A stretch of DNA of 64,000 bases, taken from the NCBI GenBank assembly GCA_963737655.1, contig CAVTTN010000002.1, forward strand, positions 3,776,001 to 3,840,000. The letters are read 5' to 3'. The notes below the pieces were generated by a model, which saw only the letters and a program-made list of their open reading frames with translations, was not told the DNA's origin and did no database searches. Shown piece after piece: positions 34,663 to 47,911 of this stretch. Source of the stretch: an uncultured Planctomycetota bacterium. GTDB lineage: Bacteria > Planctomycetota > Planctomycetia > Isosphaerales > Isosphaeraceae. Both the position numbers and the translations under genes were made by a program. Numbering within the stretch: the stretch's first letter is position 1; each line of letters begins with the position of its first letter.

Positions 34663-36819
34663 TCAGGGCTGAGTGACCCCGGCGAGGACCCTCGGGGTAT
34701 ACGTGATGTTCTTCGCCTTCCTCGACGTGAACTCCAGGGTCACCGACGCGGTTTGACCGGCCCCGAACGAGCCGGCGCCCCCGAGCGGCACCGTCACATA
34801 CGGGCTTCCGGTCGGGGCGTTCTGCTGGGTCGTCCCGGAAACGTTCACCAGGCGGACCAGCGAGTTGAGGTTGTCCAGGACGAAGCTCACCGGCGCCGAG
34901 ATGGCATTGCTGGACGTGTTCTTGAGCGTGACCGTCTGGACCCAGTACTTGCCCTTCCTCTTGATCTTGCTCAGGGACACGGCCACGAGGGTCGAGACGT
35001 CGGCCTTGACCGTCTGGGTCACGGCCGTCGCGGTGGTCGAGGGCGAGGAGGCCGAATCGCCCGAATAGACCGCGGTGATCGAGTGCGAGCCGGGGGAGAG
35101 CGTCGTCGTGAGCGAGGCCACGCCCGACGAGCCGACGCCGACGGTGCCGATCACCGTCGAGCCATCCAGGAACGTGACGGTCCCCGTGGGGCCCGGGGCG
35201 GCGACCGACGCCGGGGCGACGGCCGCCGTGAGCGTGATCGGCTGGCCGGCGAGGCTGGGGTTCGTCGAGCTCGTCAGGGTCAGGGTGGTCGTCCCCTTGG
35301 TGATGCTCGCCGTGTTCACGACGGCCGTGGCCGATCCTCCGAACGAGTTGATCGTGGTCACGACCGGCTCGAACCCGGCCGAGGCATACGTGTTCGTCCC
35401 CGAGACGTTGAACCCGCCCTGCCCGTTGGCCTGGATGGTCGCGGCCGAGATGTGGCCGTCTCCCCAGTTGATCGTGGCGTAATAGTCGTTCGGAGAGGCC
35501 CCGGGATTGGCCGAGCTGAACGTGGCCACCACCCCCGAGAACGGGGCGCCGACGGTCGTCCCGATGGTCGCGACGGTCGGGTTCGTCCCGGGCGCCCCGG
35601 GGACCACGGCCGGGCCATTGGCCAGGGGGACGGGTTCGCCGTAGACGAAATCGTCGGCCGAGACGAGGTTCGTCCCGTTCTTGCCATCGACGGCCGAGCC
35701 CGAGGTGAATGTGGTCCCGTTGAACGAGAACAGGGCGTCGGTCCCGACGAAGATCGAGACCCTCGTGACGATCGGGTTGGTGAACAGCTCGCCGACGAAC
35801 TCCGGCGAGGCCGAGGCGCCCACCGGGGCGTAGATCGTCCCCAGCGGCGTGTTGCCGGCGAAATACTCGATGCCCGAGGTCCCGGCCTGCGAGACGTTCA
35901 GGAAGACGACGCCGATCCCCCGGGTCGCCGCGGCGGCCGGGGCCGACCCGGGCGCGCCGGGCGTCACGAACTGGACGCCGATCGTCGGGGTCGAGAGCGC
36001 CGGATTGTTCATCGGCGCGACCGTGTTCATCGGGCTGAACGCGGGCAGGAGCCCGGTGGCCTTGGGATCGACGATCGTGAACCCGTCATCGCTGACGGCC
36101 AGGGCCGAATCGAAGAAGACCCCCCGGGCCTGGAAGCGGTCCTGGGGGATCGCGACGGTGCTCCCCGGCGCGATCACGGTGGTCTTGCCGCCGGCCACGG
36201 AGTCCGTGCCGTCGAGGGTCACGCCGTCCCAGGTGATCGTCCGCGAGCCGCCGGCCTGAGGGGCGGCGGTCGCCCCGTTGTCCGAGCCTCCGAGCGTCGC
36301 CTTGAAGTTGGCGATCGTCGCCGCCACGTTCGCCGTCCCCACGGCCGAGAACTGCATCGGCACGCCCGGCGCCAGCGGATTGCCCGGCGAGATCGCCGCA
36401 TCGGCCACGTAGGCGGACGTCGCCGCGACCTGGTCCAGGTCGTTCTTGGCGTCGTGGACCGCGATCCCCACGGGGTAGCCGTTGTAGAAGGAGAAACGGC
36501 TATAGGTATGCGATCCCTGGACCGTGAACGTGCCCGGGGTGGTGGTGGCCACGATCGTCCCGGCCGAGGCGGCGGTGCCGTCTCCCCAGGCGATCGTGGC
36601 GGAGAGGTCGGTGGCGGCGACGGTGGGGTCGTCGTCGATCACCGTGGCCAGGTTCACCGTCTGGCTGACCCCCTCGGGGACGCTGATCGGGATCGGGGTG
36701 ACCGTGAGGGTCGCCAGCAAGGCCCGACCCTCCATCCGCTCCACGCCCGCCAGGAACCCAGGGCGCCGCCTCCTCGGCGTCCTCGCCGCGATCGGCTTGC
36801 GATTTTGAGTTCGGAACAT
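34663..36819 (-). CDS. Secreted Ig-like domain protein with planctomycete leader and central globular domain
   Basis: ATG 36819 after GGAGA; leader LAGVERMEGRALLA; two WGDG domains; TLTSSTNPS..PTGTVTFLDG; ends PRVLAGVTQP. Confidence 0.88.
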   Translation of the reverse strand: MFRTQNRKPIAARTPRRRRPGFLAGVERMEGRALLATLTVTPIPISVPEGVSQTVNLATVIDDDPTVAATDLSATIAWGDGTAASAGTIVATTTPGTFTVQGSHTYSRFSFYNGYPVGIAVHDAKNDLDQVAATSAYVADAAISPGNPLAPGVPMQFSAVGTANVAATIANFKATLGGSDNGATAAPQAGGSRTITWDGVTLDGTDSVAGGKTTVIAPGSTVAIPQDRFQARGVFFDSALAVSDDGFTIVDPKATGLLPAFSPMNTVAPMNNPALSTPTIGVQFVTPGAPGSAPAAAATRGIGVVFLNVSQAGTSGIEYFAGNTPLGTIYAPVGASASPEFVGELFTNPIVTRVSIFVGTDALFSFNGTTFTSGSAVDGKNGTNLVSADDFVYGEPVPLANGPAVVPGAPGTNPTVATIGTTVGAPFSGVVATFSSANPGASPNDYYATINWGDGHISAATIQANGQGGFNVSGTNTYASAGFEPVVTTINSFGGSATAVVNTASITKGTTTLTLTSSTNPSLAGQPITLTAAVAPASVAAPGPTGTVTFLDGSTVIGTVGVGSSGVASLTTTLSPGSHSITAVYSGDSASSPSTTATAVTQTVKADVSTLVAVSLSKIKRKGKYWVQTVTLKNTSSNAISAPVSFVLDNLNSLVRLVNVSGTTQQNAPTGSPYVTVPLGGAGSFGAGQTASVTLEFTSRKAKNITYTPRVLAGVTQP

Positions 36820-37057
36820 GTCTGTTCTCCTGGATCGAACCATCCGGCCTGGGACCGCGACGGCCCTCGTGGCCACCTCGGCGAATCGTGTCGGACCCTC
36901 CGGGCGCGACCCTTGCGCCCGTCTCGTGTACCTAGTTTGAGTCTTTCACGGATGGACCGCAAGCCCCTACCTCGCCCGCGCGACAAAATCGCCTAATCTC
37001 CCCAGATTGACACTCCCACGGGGCAGACGAGGCCCGATTTGCGAAGAATCCGGGGGC

Positions 37058-42287: not shown

Positions 42288-44854
42288 ATGATTCGATCCG
42301 ATCCTCTCGGCCCGCTGTCCGGGGCCGTCCGAGCCTGGTTCGAGCGAGCGTTCCCCGGAGGCCCGACCCCGGCCCAGGAGGCGGCCTGGCCGGCGATCGC
42401 CGAGGGCGGCCATTCCCTGATCGTCTCGCCCACCGGCTCGGGCAAGACGCTCGCCGGCTTCCTCGCGATCGTCGATCGTCTCCATCGCGAGCACGCCGCG
42501 GGCTCGTTGAAACCGGGCATTCGTTGCGTCTATGTGTCGCCGCTCAGGAGCCTGGGATACGACGTCGAGACGAACCTTTCGGAGCCTCTCGAAGCGATCC
42601 GGGCCGACCTCGGCCTGCCGAGATCGCCGGTCTCGGTGGGCGTCCGCACCGGCGACACCTCGGCCCACTTCCGCCGGAAGATGCGGGCCGACCCGCCTCA
42701 CCTGCTGATCACCACCCCGGAGAGCCTGGCTCTGATGCTCGCCCAATCGGCGTGGGGGGCGATGTGGAGCGGGGTCGAGCAAATCCTCGTGGACGAGATC
42801 CACGCGGTCGTGCCGACCAAGAGGGGGGCGGACCTCTCGGCGTCCCTGGAACGCCTGGCGAGCCGGGCGGCGAGCGACCCGGTCCGCGTCGGCCTCTCGG
42901 CGACGTGCCGGCCGGCCGAGGTCGCCGCGCGGTTCCTGGTCGGACCCGGTCGCGATTGCCGGATCATCGAGGCGGAGCCGCCCGTCGGTTCCGGCCCGCC
43001 GGCCATCGAGGTCGAATCGCTCCTGAGGCGCGACGAGGCGGCCCATCGCGGCCTGACCTATCGCCGACTGATCCGGCGAATCCGCGACCAGGTCGCGACC
43101 GATCGCACGACGGTGGTTTTCGCGAACACGCGAGCCCTCGCCGAGAAAATTACGCACGACCTGCGACGGACCGAGTCCTCCGTGGCGGCCCACCACTCCG
43201 CGCTCGACGCGACGAGGAGGCGGGAAGTCGAGGCCGGGCTGAAATCGGGCGATCTGCGAGCGGTCGTCACGAGCACGAGCCTGGAGCTGGGCGTGGACAT
43301 CGGCTCGGCCGATTCGGCGGTGCTGGTCGGCCTGCCGGGGAGCGTCTCGCGATGCGTGCAGAGAGTCGGCCGGTCCGGGCATCGGCCGGGGTCTCGGACC
43401 CGAGGCGTGATCCTCGCCGCGACTCCGGCGGAGCTGGCCGGCGCGGTGGTCACGGCCGCGTCGTCGAGGGCGGGCCGGGTCGAGCCGCTGAGGCCGATCC
43501 GCAGCCCTCTGGATGTGCTCTGTCAGCAGTTGATCGGCATGAGTTGCTCGGAGGAATGGTCGGCCGACGAGGCCTTCGCCCTGCTCGGCCGGTCGGCCGC
43601 GTTCGCCGACCTGAGCCGCCCGGACTTCGACGATTGCCTCGCCTTCCTCGCCGGAGAACTCGCCTCGCCGGCCGGGGCGTTCGAGCCCGAGCCGGGGGCC
43701 GAGCCGAGGTGGACGGCGCCTCGGATCTGGAAGTTGAAGGGGCGATTCGGCGTGCGCAACCGGCGGGTGATCCGCTGGCTCCTCGGCAATGTCGGCACGA
43801 TCACGACCGAGGAGACGGTGTTCGTGGTCCTCGACGGCCGGGAGATCGGCTCCCTCGAAGCCTCGTACGCGGAGCGTCTCCAGGTCGGCGATCGGTTCGT
43901 GCTCGACGGCCGGTCCCTGGAATTCCTCGGGCTCGACGGCCTCAAACTCAAGGCGAAGCCGGCCGCCGGCGAGCCCGAATTGCCGAGGTGGACGAGCGAT
44001 CGGCAATCGCTCTCGGCCGAGCTGGCCCGAGACGTGGCCGCGTTTCGGGAGGAGGCGGGCCGGCTCCTGGTCGAATCGCCCTCGGCGCTGCGATCGTGGC
44101 TGGTGGAGGGGCAATCGCTCGACCTCGAGGCCGCGGGCGTGCTCGAAGACCTGCTCTCGGCCCAGGGTTCCCTGAGCGAGATCCCGCCTCCGGGCGGGCT
44201 GCTCGTCGAGGAATGGCCTCATGAACACGGGTTGGCGTATACCTTTCACGTCCCCCTCGCCCGGTCGGCGTGCGAGGCGATGGGACGGGCGGTCTCGGCG
44301 AGACTCGGGCGGCGGAGCGGTCGCGACCTGGCGTTGACCGTCGCCGATCTCGGTTTTTCGATCCGCTTGAGCGAGGGGCGCGGATCGGCGCGGACGAGCT
44401 TCCGGCGCTGCTCTCGCCCGATCGCTTCGCGGAGGACGTTTTGGAAGGTCTGGACCGCGGTGAGTTGCCGGCCCGGCGGTTCCGCCACGTGGCGAGCACG
44501 GCGATGATGGTCCTGAAGCGGCCCGAGGGCGGGCGGACGCGGGTCGGCGGGATGCTCTGGGTCAGTCGTCGCCTGTTCCCCCTGGTCAAGGCGGCGAGCC
44601 CGGATCATCCGCTGCTCCGGGAAACGTCTCGTGAGGTCCTGGAGGATCTCCTGGACGCCCCGGCGGCCCTGGAGTGGCTGAAGTCCTCGCCCGAAATCCG
44701 GTTCCGCTCGCTCGACGGCCCATCGCCGTTCACCACGGCGTGGATCGACGCCTCCGCCCCCGAACCGATGCGGTTCGAGCCGCCCGAAGAGGCGTTGCGC
44801 CGGCTCCATGCCCGATTAATCGGCGAGCCGGGAGGCATGCTCACGTCGTCGTGA
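42288..44854 (+). CDS. lhr: Lhr-type (Lhr-Core-like) SF2 helicase; frameshift in GGGG at 44375-44378
   Basis: SPTGSGKT, YVSPLRSL, RTGDT, ITTPESL, DEIH, GLSAT, TSLELGVDIG, QRVGRSGH. Continues in the 44270-44854 frame (RRFRHVA, HPLLRET, PSPF). Confidence 0.88.
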
Positions 44855-44894: not shown

Positions 44895-46409
44895 CTATTG
44901 ACAGGTCATGCACGCCGGGACGGCGACGGGGACCATGGTGCAGCTCGTCACGGGAACCTGGCGGGCGACTTGCCGGGCCACGCACCGGGTGTAGGTCACC
45001 GGCACCCGCTCCGCCACGCAGACCGGGACCTGACGGACGGCCGTTTCGGCGACCATCGAGCAAGTCCGCACGGGGATATTCTCGACCTTCTCCTCGCGGA
45101 CCATCGAGCAGGTGGTCACGGGCACGTTCTCGACCTTCTCCTCGCGGACCATCTGGCAGGTGCGGACCTCGTACGGCTGAATCCGCTCCTCCTGGACCAT
45201 CGAGCAGGTCGTCACCGGGATCTGTTCAACCTTCTCCTCGCGGACGATCTGGCAGGTGCGGACCTCGTACGGCTGAATCCGCTCCTCCTGGACCATCGAG
45301 CAGGTGGTCACGGGGACTTGCTCGACCTTCTCCTCCCGGACCATGGAGCACGTCCTCACCTCGTAGGGCTGGATGCGCTCTTCCTGGACCATCTGGCAGG
45401 AGACGACCGGGATGTTTTCGACCCTCTCCTCCGAGGTGTAGGAGCAGGTCTGGACCGGGATCATCCGGGTGGCCGTCTCCGTCACGTAGCGGGTTTCGGC
45501 CACCTGGCGGGTGACGGTCCGGGGCACGTAGACCCGTTCGCAGACGGTCCTCGGCGCGCACTGGACCGTGACCGGGACGCAGCCCCCGCAAGAGTCCATG
45601 GCCATCCGGGTCACGGTCGGCCCGGGGACCTGAACGGCTCGGGTTTCGTAGTAGCCGCACTCCACCGCCTCTTCCCTCATCGTCGTGACCGGCCGGCAGA
45701 CGGTGTACGGCTGGGCGACCATCGCGGTCTGGTAGACCGGTCGTCGAACCGTGTACCTCCTCTGGACGTTGCTGGTCTGGTAGACCGGCCTCATCACCGT
45801 GTACTTCCGTTCGAGCCGTTGCGTCTGGTACACCGGCTTGCAGACCGTGTACTTCCTCTCGACGTAGCTCGTCTGATACACCGGCCGGCAGACGGTGTAT
45901 TTCCGCTCCAACCGCTGGGTCGAATAGACGGGCTTGCAGACCGTGTACTTCCGTTCGACGTAGCTCGTCTGGTAAACGGGCCGGCAAACGGTGTACTTGC
46001 GTTCGTACCTCTGCGTGGAATAGACCGGCTTGCAGACGGTGTACGTCCGCGGGATGTAGGCGGTCTGGTAGACGGGCCGGCAGACCGTGTACTTCCTCTC
46101 GACGTAGCTCGTCTGATAGACGGGCTTCATCACCTGATACGACTGAGGCTGAAGGACGGTCCTCATCCGGGTCTCGTAGGCGGTGAACGGCTGATTCTCG
46201 TACACCGTCTCGTACACCGTGCGCATCGTCGTGGTGTACTGGGGCTGGAGGGCCACCGTCGTACACTGGGTCGCGACCACGGGGGCCGGTCCGCATCGAT
46301 ACGACGCCCCCCCGCAGTACGAGGCGCCGGCCGTTGCCGAGAGCCCGAGGACCAGCACGGCCCCGGCGGCGAGCGTTCTGACGATCGAAACAGTCCTGAG
46401 CCTGAGCAT
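44895..46409 (-). CDS. Exported Cys/Val/Thr-rich YTV-repeat protein (planctomycete envelope protein family)
   Basis: ATG 46409 after GAGGAGGG; signal peptide ending ATAGA; ten 16-aa YTVCxPV units, CGGC, then about nine 16-aa PVxTCxMVxEE units. Confidence 0.92.
   Translation of the reverse strand: MLRLRTVSIVRTLAAGAVLVLGLSATAGASYCGGASYRCGPAPVVATQCTTVALQPQYTTTMRTVYETVYENQPFTAYETRMRTVLQPQSYQVMKPVYQTSYVERKYTVCRPVYQTAYIPRTYTVCKPVYSTQRYERKYTVCRPVYQTSYVERKYTVCKPVYSTQRLERKYTVCRPVYQTSYVERKYTVCKPVYQTQRLERKYTVMRPVYQTSNVQRRYTVRRPVYQTAMVAQPYTVCRPVTTMREEAVECGYYETRAVQVPGPTVTRMAMDSCGGCVPVTVQCAPRTVCERVYVPRTVTRQVAETRYVTETATRMIPVQTCSYTSEERVENIPVVSCQMVQEERIQPYEVRTCSMVREEKVEQVPVTTCSMVQEERIQPYEVRTCQIVREEKVEQIPVTTCSMVQEERIQPYEVRTCQMVREEKVENVPVTTCSMVREEKVENIPVRTCSMVAETAVRQVPVCVAERVPVTYTRCVARQVARQVPVTSCTMVPVAVPACMTCQ
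45030..46150 (-). repeat. Two intragenic tandem arrays with 48-nt period and 96-nt super-period
   Basis: Near-identical DNA units, e.g. CAGACCGTGTACTTCC (about 45690-46150) and TCGACCTTCTCCTCGCGGACCATC (about 45030-45470). Confidence 0.9.
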
Positions 46410-46588
46410 CGCGTCGTCCCTCCTCGGCGGCTCGAACGTCCGTGATGCGTCCGCCCGGATGTCGATCTTCGCCGCCAAGGAGGAGGACACTTCGTCCCTG
46501 AATCGATCCCCCCGCCTCCCTGATCGTCCCAGATAACCCCGATCGTCGCTTCGATCGAATTCCCTGGACAATCAGGCGTGACGAGTCC

Positions 46589-46800: not shown

Positions 46801-47830
46801 TCAGCGGTTTTCTGGCATTTTTTTCAGGAGGCTGCGGGCCTCGACCTGGACGGCGCGCGGGCCGTCCTTCGCCAGGGCGACGATTTCGCCACGCGCCTTC
46901 TCGGCCAGGGCGGGTTTGGTGGGCGCGGAGACCTGCAAGGCCCAGAGCGTCTCCAGCTCGATGGCTTCGATGGCCGATTCGGTCTCCGACGGCGTGGGCC
47001 GCTGGATGACCTGCTTGAGATCCCTGGGGGAAAGCATCTCGCGGACGAACGGCGCCGCCTGGGGGTCTCCGCGACGGGCCAGGGCCACGGCGGCGTTGTA
47101 CTTGACGGTGCGGTCCTCGTCCTCGTCGAGCCGTTTGCGAAGCGCCCTCACGCTCTCATCGCCCGAGAAGAAGCCGAGCGCAGTACGAGGCCCGGGCGCG
47201 GACCTCGGCATCCTCGGGTTCGGCGTTGGCCTCCGCCGCCTGGGCCAGGGCGCGGACGGCCCGCTCGTCGCCGAACGACCCCCCTTCCCTCTCGGCCTGG
47301 CGAGACAGGCTCAATGCGGCATAAATCCGAACCGCCGGGGGTTGCTCCGGCCCCAGGGCCCGGCATAGCGACGCGATCGGGTCGGGCGTCTCGCCTTCGA
47401 CCGGCTTGGCCTTGAGCGTCTGGAACGAGCCGAGGGTCATCGCGAGGTACTGCGCCAGCTCGGGCTTTTCCTTCTTCGGGTGGTCGAGCTCGCGGTTCAG
47501 AAGGACGGTCAGCTCTCCGAGCAAGGCGCCGTCGCTGGCGAGCTTCGCGTCGTTGTGGATCAGGCTGGCGAGTTCATGGGCCGATCGCCACCGCCGGTTC
47601 TCGTTGTCCGACTTGATCGACCGGACGTAATCCATCACGTCCCGTCCGCCATTGGCCAGCCTCCCGAACGGAAGCTGCACCAACGCGACATACGCCACCA
47701 CGAGGACCAGGACGATCGCGGCGGGGATCACGAACAACTGGACGATGAACCGGGCCGACGGCGGCTCGACGGGCGGCAGCTCGGTCGGCAGCTCGGAGTG
47801 GATCGAGCCGTTGGGTTTCGGGTCGGTCAT
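46801..47830 (-). CDS. Membrane-anchored HEAT-repeat protein; frameshift near 47182
   Basis: LPPVEPPSARFIVQLFVIPAAIV TM segment; RWRSAHELA, VRIYAALSL, VRARASY/ALGF, VKYNAAVALARRGD. Confidence 0.82.
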
Positions 47831-47911
47831 GAAAGGGCCGGGTGGATCGGGGCGTGGGGAGAGATCGCGTCCGGTGTCAGTGTAGGAAAATCGGGGCCGC
47901 CCCGCCAAGGG

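Follow-up and report, generated by a model that had tools for sequence, protein, structure and literature searches.

A planctomycete YTV-family protein with two mirror-ordered repeat arms that very probably pair in one long beta-ribbon

The YTV gene and its surroundings

The window analysed here, a 64,000-nt stretch of DNA from an uncultured bacterium of the Isosphaeraceae (Planctomycetota), carries a gene for a repetitive, cysteine-rich protein that we refer to as P0001 (Table 1); P, L and G numbers denote proteins, loci and genomes of our collection. As the first-pass annotation had recognised, the protein belongs to the YTV envelope family: it matches the Pfam YTV entry in five stretches, which cover the outgoing arm only. 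The return arm alone matched no Pfam family over the cut-off, and an NCBIfam search of the protein found no family. Among named records, the nearest relatives come from Isosphaeraceae, Singulisphaera and Tundrisphaera, at 50–79% identity. YTV relatives occur in 119/121 genomes of the family and in 301/301 sampled from the class Planctomycetia.

Table 1 Features of the YTV gene, its product and its neighbours. Positions refer to the window, residue numbers to the precursor.
Feature	Position	Strand	Basis
YTV-family gene P0001, 504-aa secreted precursor	44895..46409	-	Pfam PF07639, 196.6 bits (cut-off 21)
Shine-Dalgarno-like GAGGAG, 10 nt upstream of the ATG	46420..46425	-	Sequence reading
Predicted Sec signal peptide, residues 1–29	46323..46409	-	Judged by eye from a basic start, a hydrophobic core and the A-G-A ending
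N-terminal head, residues 30–53, Cys 32/39/49	46251..46322	-	Low confidence in the AlphaFold2 model
Outgoing strand, residues 54–261: N-cap, ten 16-aa units, stem	45627..46250	-	Continuous strand 25–232 of the mature model
Ten outgoing 16-aa units (0–9), residues 91–250	45660..46139	-	Repeat finding and Pfam YTV match
Turn head, residues 262–286	45552..45626	-	PGP, short hairpin 265–271/277–283 around DSCGG, QCAP
CGGC at the tip, residues 274–277	45579..45590	-	C274 is the centre of register i+j=548
Return strand, residues 287–494	44928..45551	-	Continuous strand 258–465 of the mature model
Nine returning 16-aa units (a–i), residues 315–458	45036..45467	-	One Cys per unit, each facing Tyr
C-terminal CxxC, C500 and C503	44901..44912	-	Sequence
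Lhr-like DEAD/DEAH helicase, two ORFs	42288..44507 and 44270..44854	+	
Single-membrane-span HEAT-repeat gene, two ORFs	47156..47908 and 46801..47211	-	
737-aa secreted-type protein	34663..36876	-	Planctomycete-style N-terminal motif and repeated PKD/Ig-like segments, by eye

The mature protein contains 29 cysteines in 475 residues and nine YTV units plus one YQV unit; inspection by eye revealed no membrane anchor at either end. The orthologues inspected from family f1 end similarly to its C-terminal CxxC. A scan for promoters and terminators returned nothing above chance. The neighbouring helicase is split by a frameshift into two overlapping ORFs; its pieces lie in one frame in L024, and the split is probably a read error. 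A frameshift likewise divides the HEAT-repeat gene; of 23 orthologous loci, 20 have its pieces in the same frame. In 24 of 29 family-f1 loci this gene is the immediate upstream neighbour of the YTV gene, and none of 88 loci from three other families shows it within a 1.5-kb flank, an association that we regard as a lead only. In family f3 (L172–L198), the ORFs upstream of the YTV gene include a small type IV pilin-like one (16 loci) and a Rex-like regulator (12 loci), both named by sequence reading.

This protein had been described as carrying 16-residue units, ten on the way out and nine on the way back, whose variants follow a mirrored order. Both unit positions and variants were confirmed: the TQR[YL] variant occupies outgoing units 2, 4 and 6, and the QPYE variant returning units c, e and g. 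TRF detected both arrays, with periods of 48 and 96 nt. The arms are nearly devoid of turn residues (G 0.2%, D 0, N 1.2%). They had also been described as basic and acidic; the outgoing repeats are indeed strongly basic (net +21), whereas the return repeats are mildly acidic (17 K/R and 25 D/E, net −8). When residues i and j are paired such that i+j=548, the variable triplets face each other as R-[LY]-E with E-Y-P and Y-V-E with P-V/I-[QN]. Taken alone, the protein constitutes weak evidence, because two alternating arrays may match by chance.

Arm lengths across the family

Genome loci and protein searches supplied 465 distinct YTV proteins, in which we located four anchors by separate profiles: an N-cap, the two aromatics flanking the turn, and a C-cap (in P0001, Y70 and Y254 on the outgoing strand, Y294 and P470 on the return strand). 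The profiles separating caps from repeats were trained once, on the initial anchor set. Leaving out 167 proteins with unknown residues or an anchor missing above 10 bits, 298 relatives were measured. In 237 of them the return arm equalled the outgoing arm minus eight residues exactly. The arms of these matched proteins come in 18 lengths between 104 and 362 residues (anchor to anchor), every one of them even, as the alternation of a beta-strand requires. Permuting the pairing of arms yielded 47 matches on average and 70 at most, although kinship among the relatives means that the comparison of 237 with 47 does not translate into a probability. The rule held in 100 of 134 proteins outside the training pool and in 180 of 206 at 20 bits. 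Anchor profiles re-trained at a low threshold slid onto internal repeats (40 of 332 matched), and that profile set was discarded.

More telling than the raw count are the length changes between close neighbours, among which 18 distinct ones are equal in both arms (with sizes of 6, 12, 16, 24, 28, 32, 48, 62 and 112 residues). Turn length varies independently of the arms, ranging from 26 to 86 among relatives; the anchor distance across the turn head is 40 in P0001 and mostly 54–62 elsewhere. Common arm lengths are 184 (84 proteins from at least two families), 136 (56 proteins) and 152 (29 proteins), and paralogues of unlike arm length coexist within one genome: 184 and 172 here, 184 and 296 in G118, 184 and 136 in G164. 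The shorter-armed gene here is the sole other YTV gene of its genome (L005:766-2226, minus strand; G000:C2, near 2.573 Mb). It combines Cys-poor arms of four 28-aa repeats each with a flexible turn rich in Ala, Ser and Gln, and follows the same rule (172/164).

Several further members of the collection stand apart. L097, L103, L108, L113 and L124 encode very long YTV proteins with outgoing arms of 330–440 residues, which would imply ribbons of >110 nm; in several cases the assembled sequence is cut, gapped or mismatched. The anchors did not fit P0068, P0070, P0078, P0101 and similar YTV-like proteins of ~290 aa, which belong to a further paralogue. A YTV gene with a 184/176 plan lies on a contig titled archaeal (L162), most likely mis-binned planctomycete DNA.

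The first-pass annotation had proposed that the two arrays change length in step. This stood for the majority just described, but 61 of the 298 relatives break the rule. Inspected by eye, these comprise 23 whole-unit mismatches in the sequence as deposited, five proteins off by 1–2 residues, 16 cases of a misplaced anchor, truncation or frameshift, and 17 that represent a side-loop paralogue found mostly in family f5 (probably Gemmataceae). At the loci of that family (L201–L230), a 24–52-residue side loop of the form GA[YW]V...F-x-E-G-A interrupts the return arm, always starting 81 residues from the turn; L206 carries two copies and L223 none. The loop could possibly serve as a binding or branching site. 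Both cap motifs were present at 16 of these 30 loci, where one loop-free protein gave −8, eleven gave −9 after excision of the loop, a treatment chosen after the data had been seen, and four had wrong anchors.

Among measurable loci, whole-unit mismatches affected none of the 55 in assemblies with 10 contigs or fewer, as opposed to 15 of 134 in fragmented ones, and the longest exact DNA repeat was longer in mismatched loci (median 62 versus 35 nt). Both observations fit a collapse of repeats during assembly. Some mismatches may nevertheless be genuine: one deletion is common to L067 and L086, and the same holds for P0127/P0128 and for P0185/P0192. Between close neighbours, 49 distinct length transitions were unequal, compared with the 18 equal ones, and each unequal transition involves one of the 61 exceptions.

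Register, facing residues and predicted fold

Mirror order extended to irregular arrays. In L119, where 14- and 16-residue spacings are mixed, the succession outward from the turn (16,14,16,14,16,14,16,14,16,14,16,16,14,16,16) is identical on both arms over 15 units. A constant register fitted 20/21, 16/17 and 16/16 units in L113, L119 and L142, respectively, and was broken by a slide of 14 or 16 residues. More broadly, one register accommodates almost all units of L113, L119, L142, L187, L241 and L250, where a 14 or 16 slide fails in part. Among 57 orthologues (25 pattern pairs), a QR-type outgoing unit lay opposite a PY-type return unit 38 out of 38 times; the rule is one-way, with 45 PY units lying opposite other variants, and a narrow variant definition gave an agreement of 0.77. 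From six residues of the outgoing unit, a classifier evaluated with pattern groups held out (445 units, 57 orthologues) predicted which type of return unit lies opposite, reaching an AUC of 0.99 as compared to 0.56–0.69 for units one or two positions away.

Covariation analysis gave a matching picture. Pooled mutual information between the arms of 226 matched 16-periodic proteins reached 8.3, 7.3 and 6.3 at offsets 0, −2 and +2, respectively, versus 3.3–4.9 elsewhere, and offset 0 together with either −2 or +2 occupied the top two ranks in each of four clades. A peak at these offsets is the pattern of an antiparallel beta-pair. The best anti-diagonal in every third of the arm was i+j=548, which in P0001 sets Y254 opposite Y294 with C274 at the centre. 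Of the top 200 covarying pairs, 30 cross-arm pairs fell at sums 546–550, with no more than two at any other sum. The first-pass annotation had expected a long anti-diagonal, and the peak between the arms lies on one, at 548 ± 2. Together, these family-wide data remove the doubt that the mirror order in P0001 is a chance match.

Inspection of facing positions revealed 0.3 like-charge and 5.9 opposite-charge pairs per 100, as compared to 1.5 and 4.2 when the arms were slid by 16. What holds across the family is that facing residues locally avoid having like charges. Complementarity of K/R in one arm and E in the other, put forward earlier as what holds the ribbon together, does not generalise, as a basic outgoing arm combined with an acidic return arm occurs in only 52 of the 237 matched relatives. 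Disulfides across the hairpin had likewise been suggested. Such a facing ladder was rejected: opposite Cys–Cys pairs are nearly absent (0.02 per 100 across the family), and all nine return-repeat cysteines of P0001 lie opposite Tyr. Instead, 19 of the 20 arm cysteines are on one face of the P0001 ribbon, alongside Thr, Pro, Tyr and Met, while the opposite face is rich in Val, Arg, Gln and Glu. The nearest same-face cysteines are four positions apart along the ladder, a spacing presumably too wide to be bridged by a disulfide if the strands are extended, so that cross-links between ribbons are their likely use.

With 85 equal-length relatives as input, AlphaFold2 predicted two continuous 208-residue strands (54–261 and 287–494) in register i+j=548 and a short tip hairpin, with no turns inside the arms (mean pLDDT 72.6, mid-arm 44–55, pTM 0.23). 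Prediction from the single sequence was uninformative (pLDDT 33.5). The modelled fold is consistent with the covariation, the two drawing on overlapping sequences of equal-length proteins only and hence not being independent. An extended beta-strand rises by 0.32–0.34 nm per residue. At 208–215 residues per strand, this would amount to a contour length of 67–73 nm. The earlier proposal of one long antiparallel ribbon turning at CGGC, with a length in about this range, is supported.

Structural searches returned no match at E ≤ 0.001 in Foldseek (best E 2.3e-3, TM 0.09) and none at Z ≥ 5 in VIA-align (best Z 3.0), the thin model (pTM 0.23) making a poor query for either. A sequence-profile search against the PDB gave nothing below E 0.17. 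The ESM Atlas holds no model of P0001; the nearest neighbours there are YTV clusters (0.92–0.93).

A proposed wall ribbon and its counterparts

Family membership, arm-length rule, mirror order, register and face pattern are established by this analysis, and the earlier interpretation of the protein is partly supported. We propose, with a probability of roughly 0.8, that P0001 is a secreted planctomycete wall protein that forms one two-stranded antiparallel hairpin ribbon folded at residue 274, and that such ribbons are cross-linked to each other. After export, the chain would fold back at residue 274, and the arms would zip up residue by residue (i+j=548) into a beta-ribbon of 208–215 residues per strand, with a contour of ~70 nm, or less if coiled. 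The repeat halves thus very probably pair unit against unit. If every residue has a fixed partner, a substitution, a unit variant or a change in unit length or number in one arm would be mirrored in the other, which would explain the mirror order of the repeat variants. The one-face cysteines, together with the Cys-bearing head, the tip and the CxxC tail, would cross-link neighbouring ribbons into a detergent-resistant mesh; since the cysteines seem unable to pair across the ladder, inter-ribbon disulfides are most likely. We infer pairing inside one chain, the length in nanometres and the wall location, the last by analogy with published relatives.

A hairpin need not be part of a mesh. It could instead act as a spacer or ruler that sets periplasm width or the length of a stalk or fibre, or as a subunit of surface fibres. 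That arm length is strongly conserved within lineages, even though repeats expand easily, would suit such a role, as would the fibrous SDS-insoluble material reported in an excerpted account of T. immobilis pellets (PMC8567305). Single genomes, however, carry paralogues of differing arm length, which argues against a ruler, an idea of the first-pass annotation that gained no support here, and P0001 appears by eye to lack a membrane anchor at either end. Excerpts of a study of G. obscuriglobus moreover name YTV proteins as major constituents of SDS-boiled walls (PMC5287468). We consider this alternative unlikely.

The hairpin ribbon presupposes that the two arms belong to one chain. The same register could also arise between chains, in arm-swapped dimers or an endless head-to-tail polymer, either always or upon assembly, and by our reasoning neither covariation nor matched arm lengths can tell intra-chain from inter-chain pairing. 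Moreover, a ribbon of just two strands leaves both of its edges free, and the longest of the hairpins that matched weakly in structure belong to oligomeric barrels and tail tubes. A two-copy complex prediction was uninformative on this point (score 0.02 versus a mark of 0.42). Against inter-chain pairing, the register of the model continues unbroken to the tip hairpin (265–271/277–283), and relatives carry DP-x-x-G/C-type sequences at the tip, which we take to be hairpin turns. Pairing between chains therefore strikes us as rather improbable, and we retain the single-chain hairpin.

Could each arm fold separately, into a beta-solenoid with 16 residues per coil or into successive local hairpins? 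Most of the strongest position-level covariation lies within arms, where multiples of 16 separate the partners in 42 of the 50 top pairs, and small local anti-diagonals reach up to 0.09 over few pairs. Yet within arms the signal at +32 (0.19, 0.16) exceeds that at +16 (0.12, 0.10), and 68% of the pairs join identical residues. Peaking at +32 and linking identical residues, it is therefore read as repeat homogenisation. Separate folding would leave matched lengths and mirror order without explanation, and G, D and N are nearly absent from the arms. The arm rule, constant register, AlphaFold2 model and covariation sums largely refute this option, which we hold to be very improbable. Nor is mirror order at all plausibly a by-product of DNA events such as inverted duplication or concerted evolution: both arrays are homogenised at the DNA level (66–85% unit matches), but inverted repeats between the arms amount to nine scattered pairs of 14–25 nt, with no long one, the sequences of the arms are dissimilar (best E 2.4), and covariation at offsets 0 and ±2 is a beta-sheet pattern.

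A broader version of the hairpin proposal, to which we give an even chance, would be that giant single hairpins, from 35 to >120 nm long, make up the protein wall of Planctomycetia as a mesh that is built from unlike arrays evolving in mirror order, held by one-face disulfides, and takes over much of the role of peptidoglycan. If true, this would be a bacterial wall polymer without a described structural counterpart. A register at residue level makes the architecture of a wall protein directly testable: rod length would scale with unit number, one-face cysteines would bear the cross-links, and loss of a unit from one arm would break the protein, whereas loss of the mirror unit would restore its function. 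The YTV arms are also a clean example of repeat arrays that lack homology to each other yet co-evolve in reverse order. As an architecture, the hairpin is an extreme variant of the beta-ribbon, far longer than those among the structural matches returned; P0001 itself is an ordinary family member. The YTV hairpin is probably unpublished: we found neither a YTV fold nor arm co-evolution in the literature searched, the primary proteomic papers lying outside it, so a prior description is possible.

The first-pass annotation had also seen a link to articulins and alveolins, which came down to likeness in composition. According to an excerpted description (PMC6212826), articulins and epiplastins (alveolins) and the articulin-like proteins of Caulobacter share with P0001 an abundance of V, a scarcity of G and A, acid–base dyads, VPV motifs and long predicted beta-strands, and articulins and epiplastins form a structural layer at the cell surface, as is proposed for P0001. 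By the figures excerpted there, the seven VPV motifs of P0001 (278, 365, 429, 461, 469, 485 and 493) exceed the >3 expected in the medial domain of an epiplastin, and the composition of its arms fits in V (17.5%), G (0.2%) and A (3.1%) but departs in T (13% versus 3 ± 2% in the epiplastin domain). The same excerpts describe epiplastins as having no fixed repeats and as lining the inner membrane face, whereas the P0001 arms consist of strict 16-aa units with 5% Cys, and its predicted signal peptide points to an extracytoplasmic site. No articulin or alveolin family was matched in Pfam at E ≤ 0.1 with the whole protein or at E ≤ 1 with the return arm.

The best matches by fold, albeit weak ones, are the long hairpins of the phi29 and Andhra tail collar or tube and the pore stems of aerolysin-type toxins and protective antigen, which are extended, two-stranded and antiparallel. 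The VIA-align matches to these solved hairpins cover 45–119 residues, while P0001 is predicted to have ~208 repetitive residues per strand. Solved long hairpins project from globular domains in oligomeric barrels, whereas the predicted P0001 hairpin makes up nearly the whole protein, and the comparison gives no sign of homology or common function.

The nearest counterparts remain the YTV wall proteins (PF07639) of R. baltica, G. obscuriglobus, T. immobilis and P. limnophila (Plim_0937), which share the YTV repeats and Cys-richness and carry a signal peptide, as predicted by eye for P0001; the two-arm plan of P0001 is common to most measurable YTV relatives. In the excerpted accounts, YTV proteins are top-scoring among T. 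immobilis wall proteins (PMC8567305), exclusive to Planctomycetia (PMC12673574) and, in the case of one protein, essential in P. limnophila (PMC10632474). What the planctomycete protein wall consists of and how it holds its shape is described, in the excerpted source, as an open question since the 1980s (PMC12673574). To the location, distribution, Cys content and essentiality given in these published accounts, as excerpted, the analysis of P0001 adds a predicted fold.
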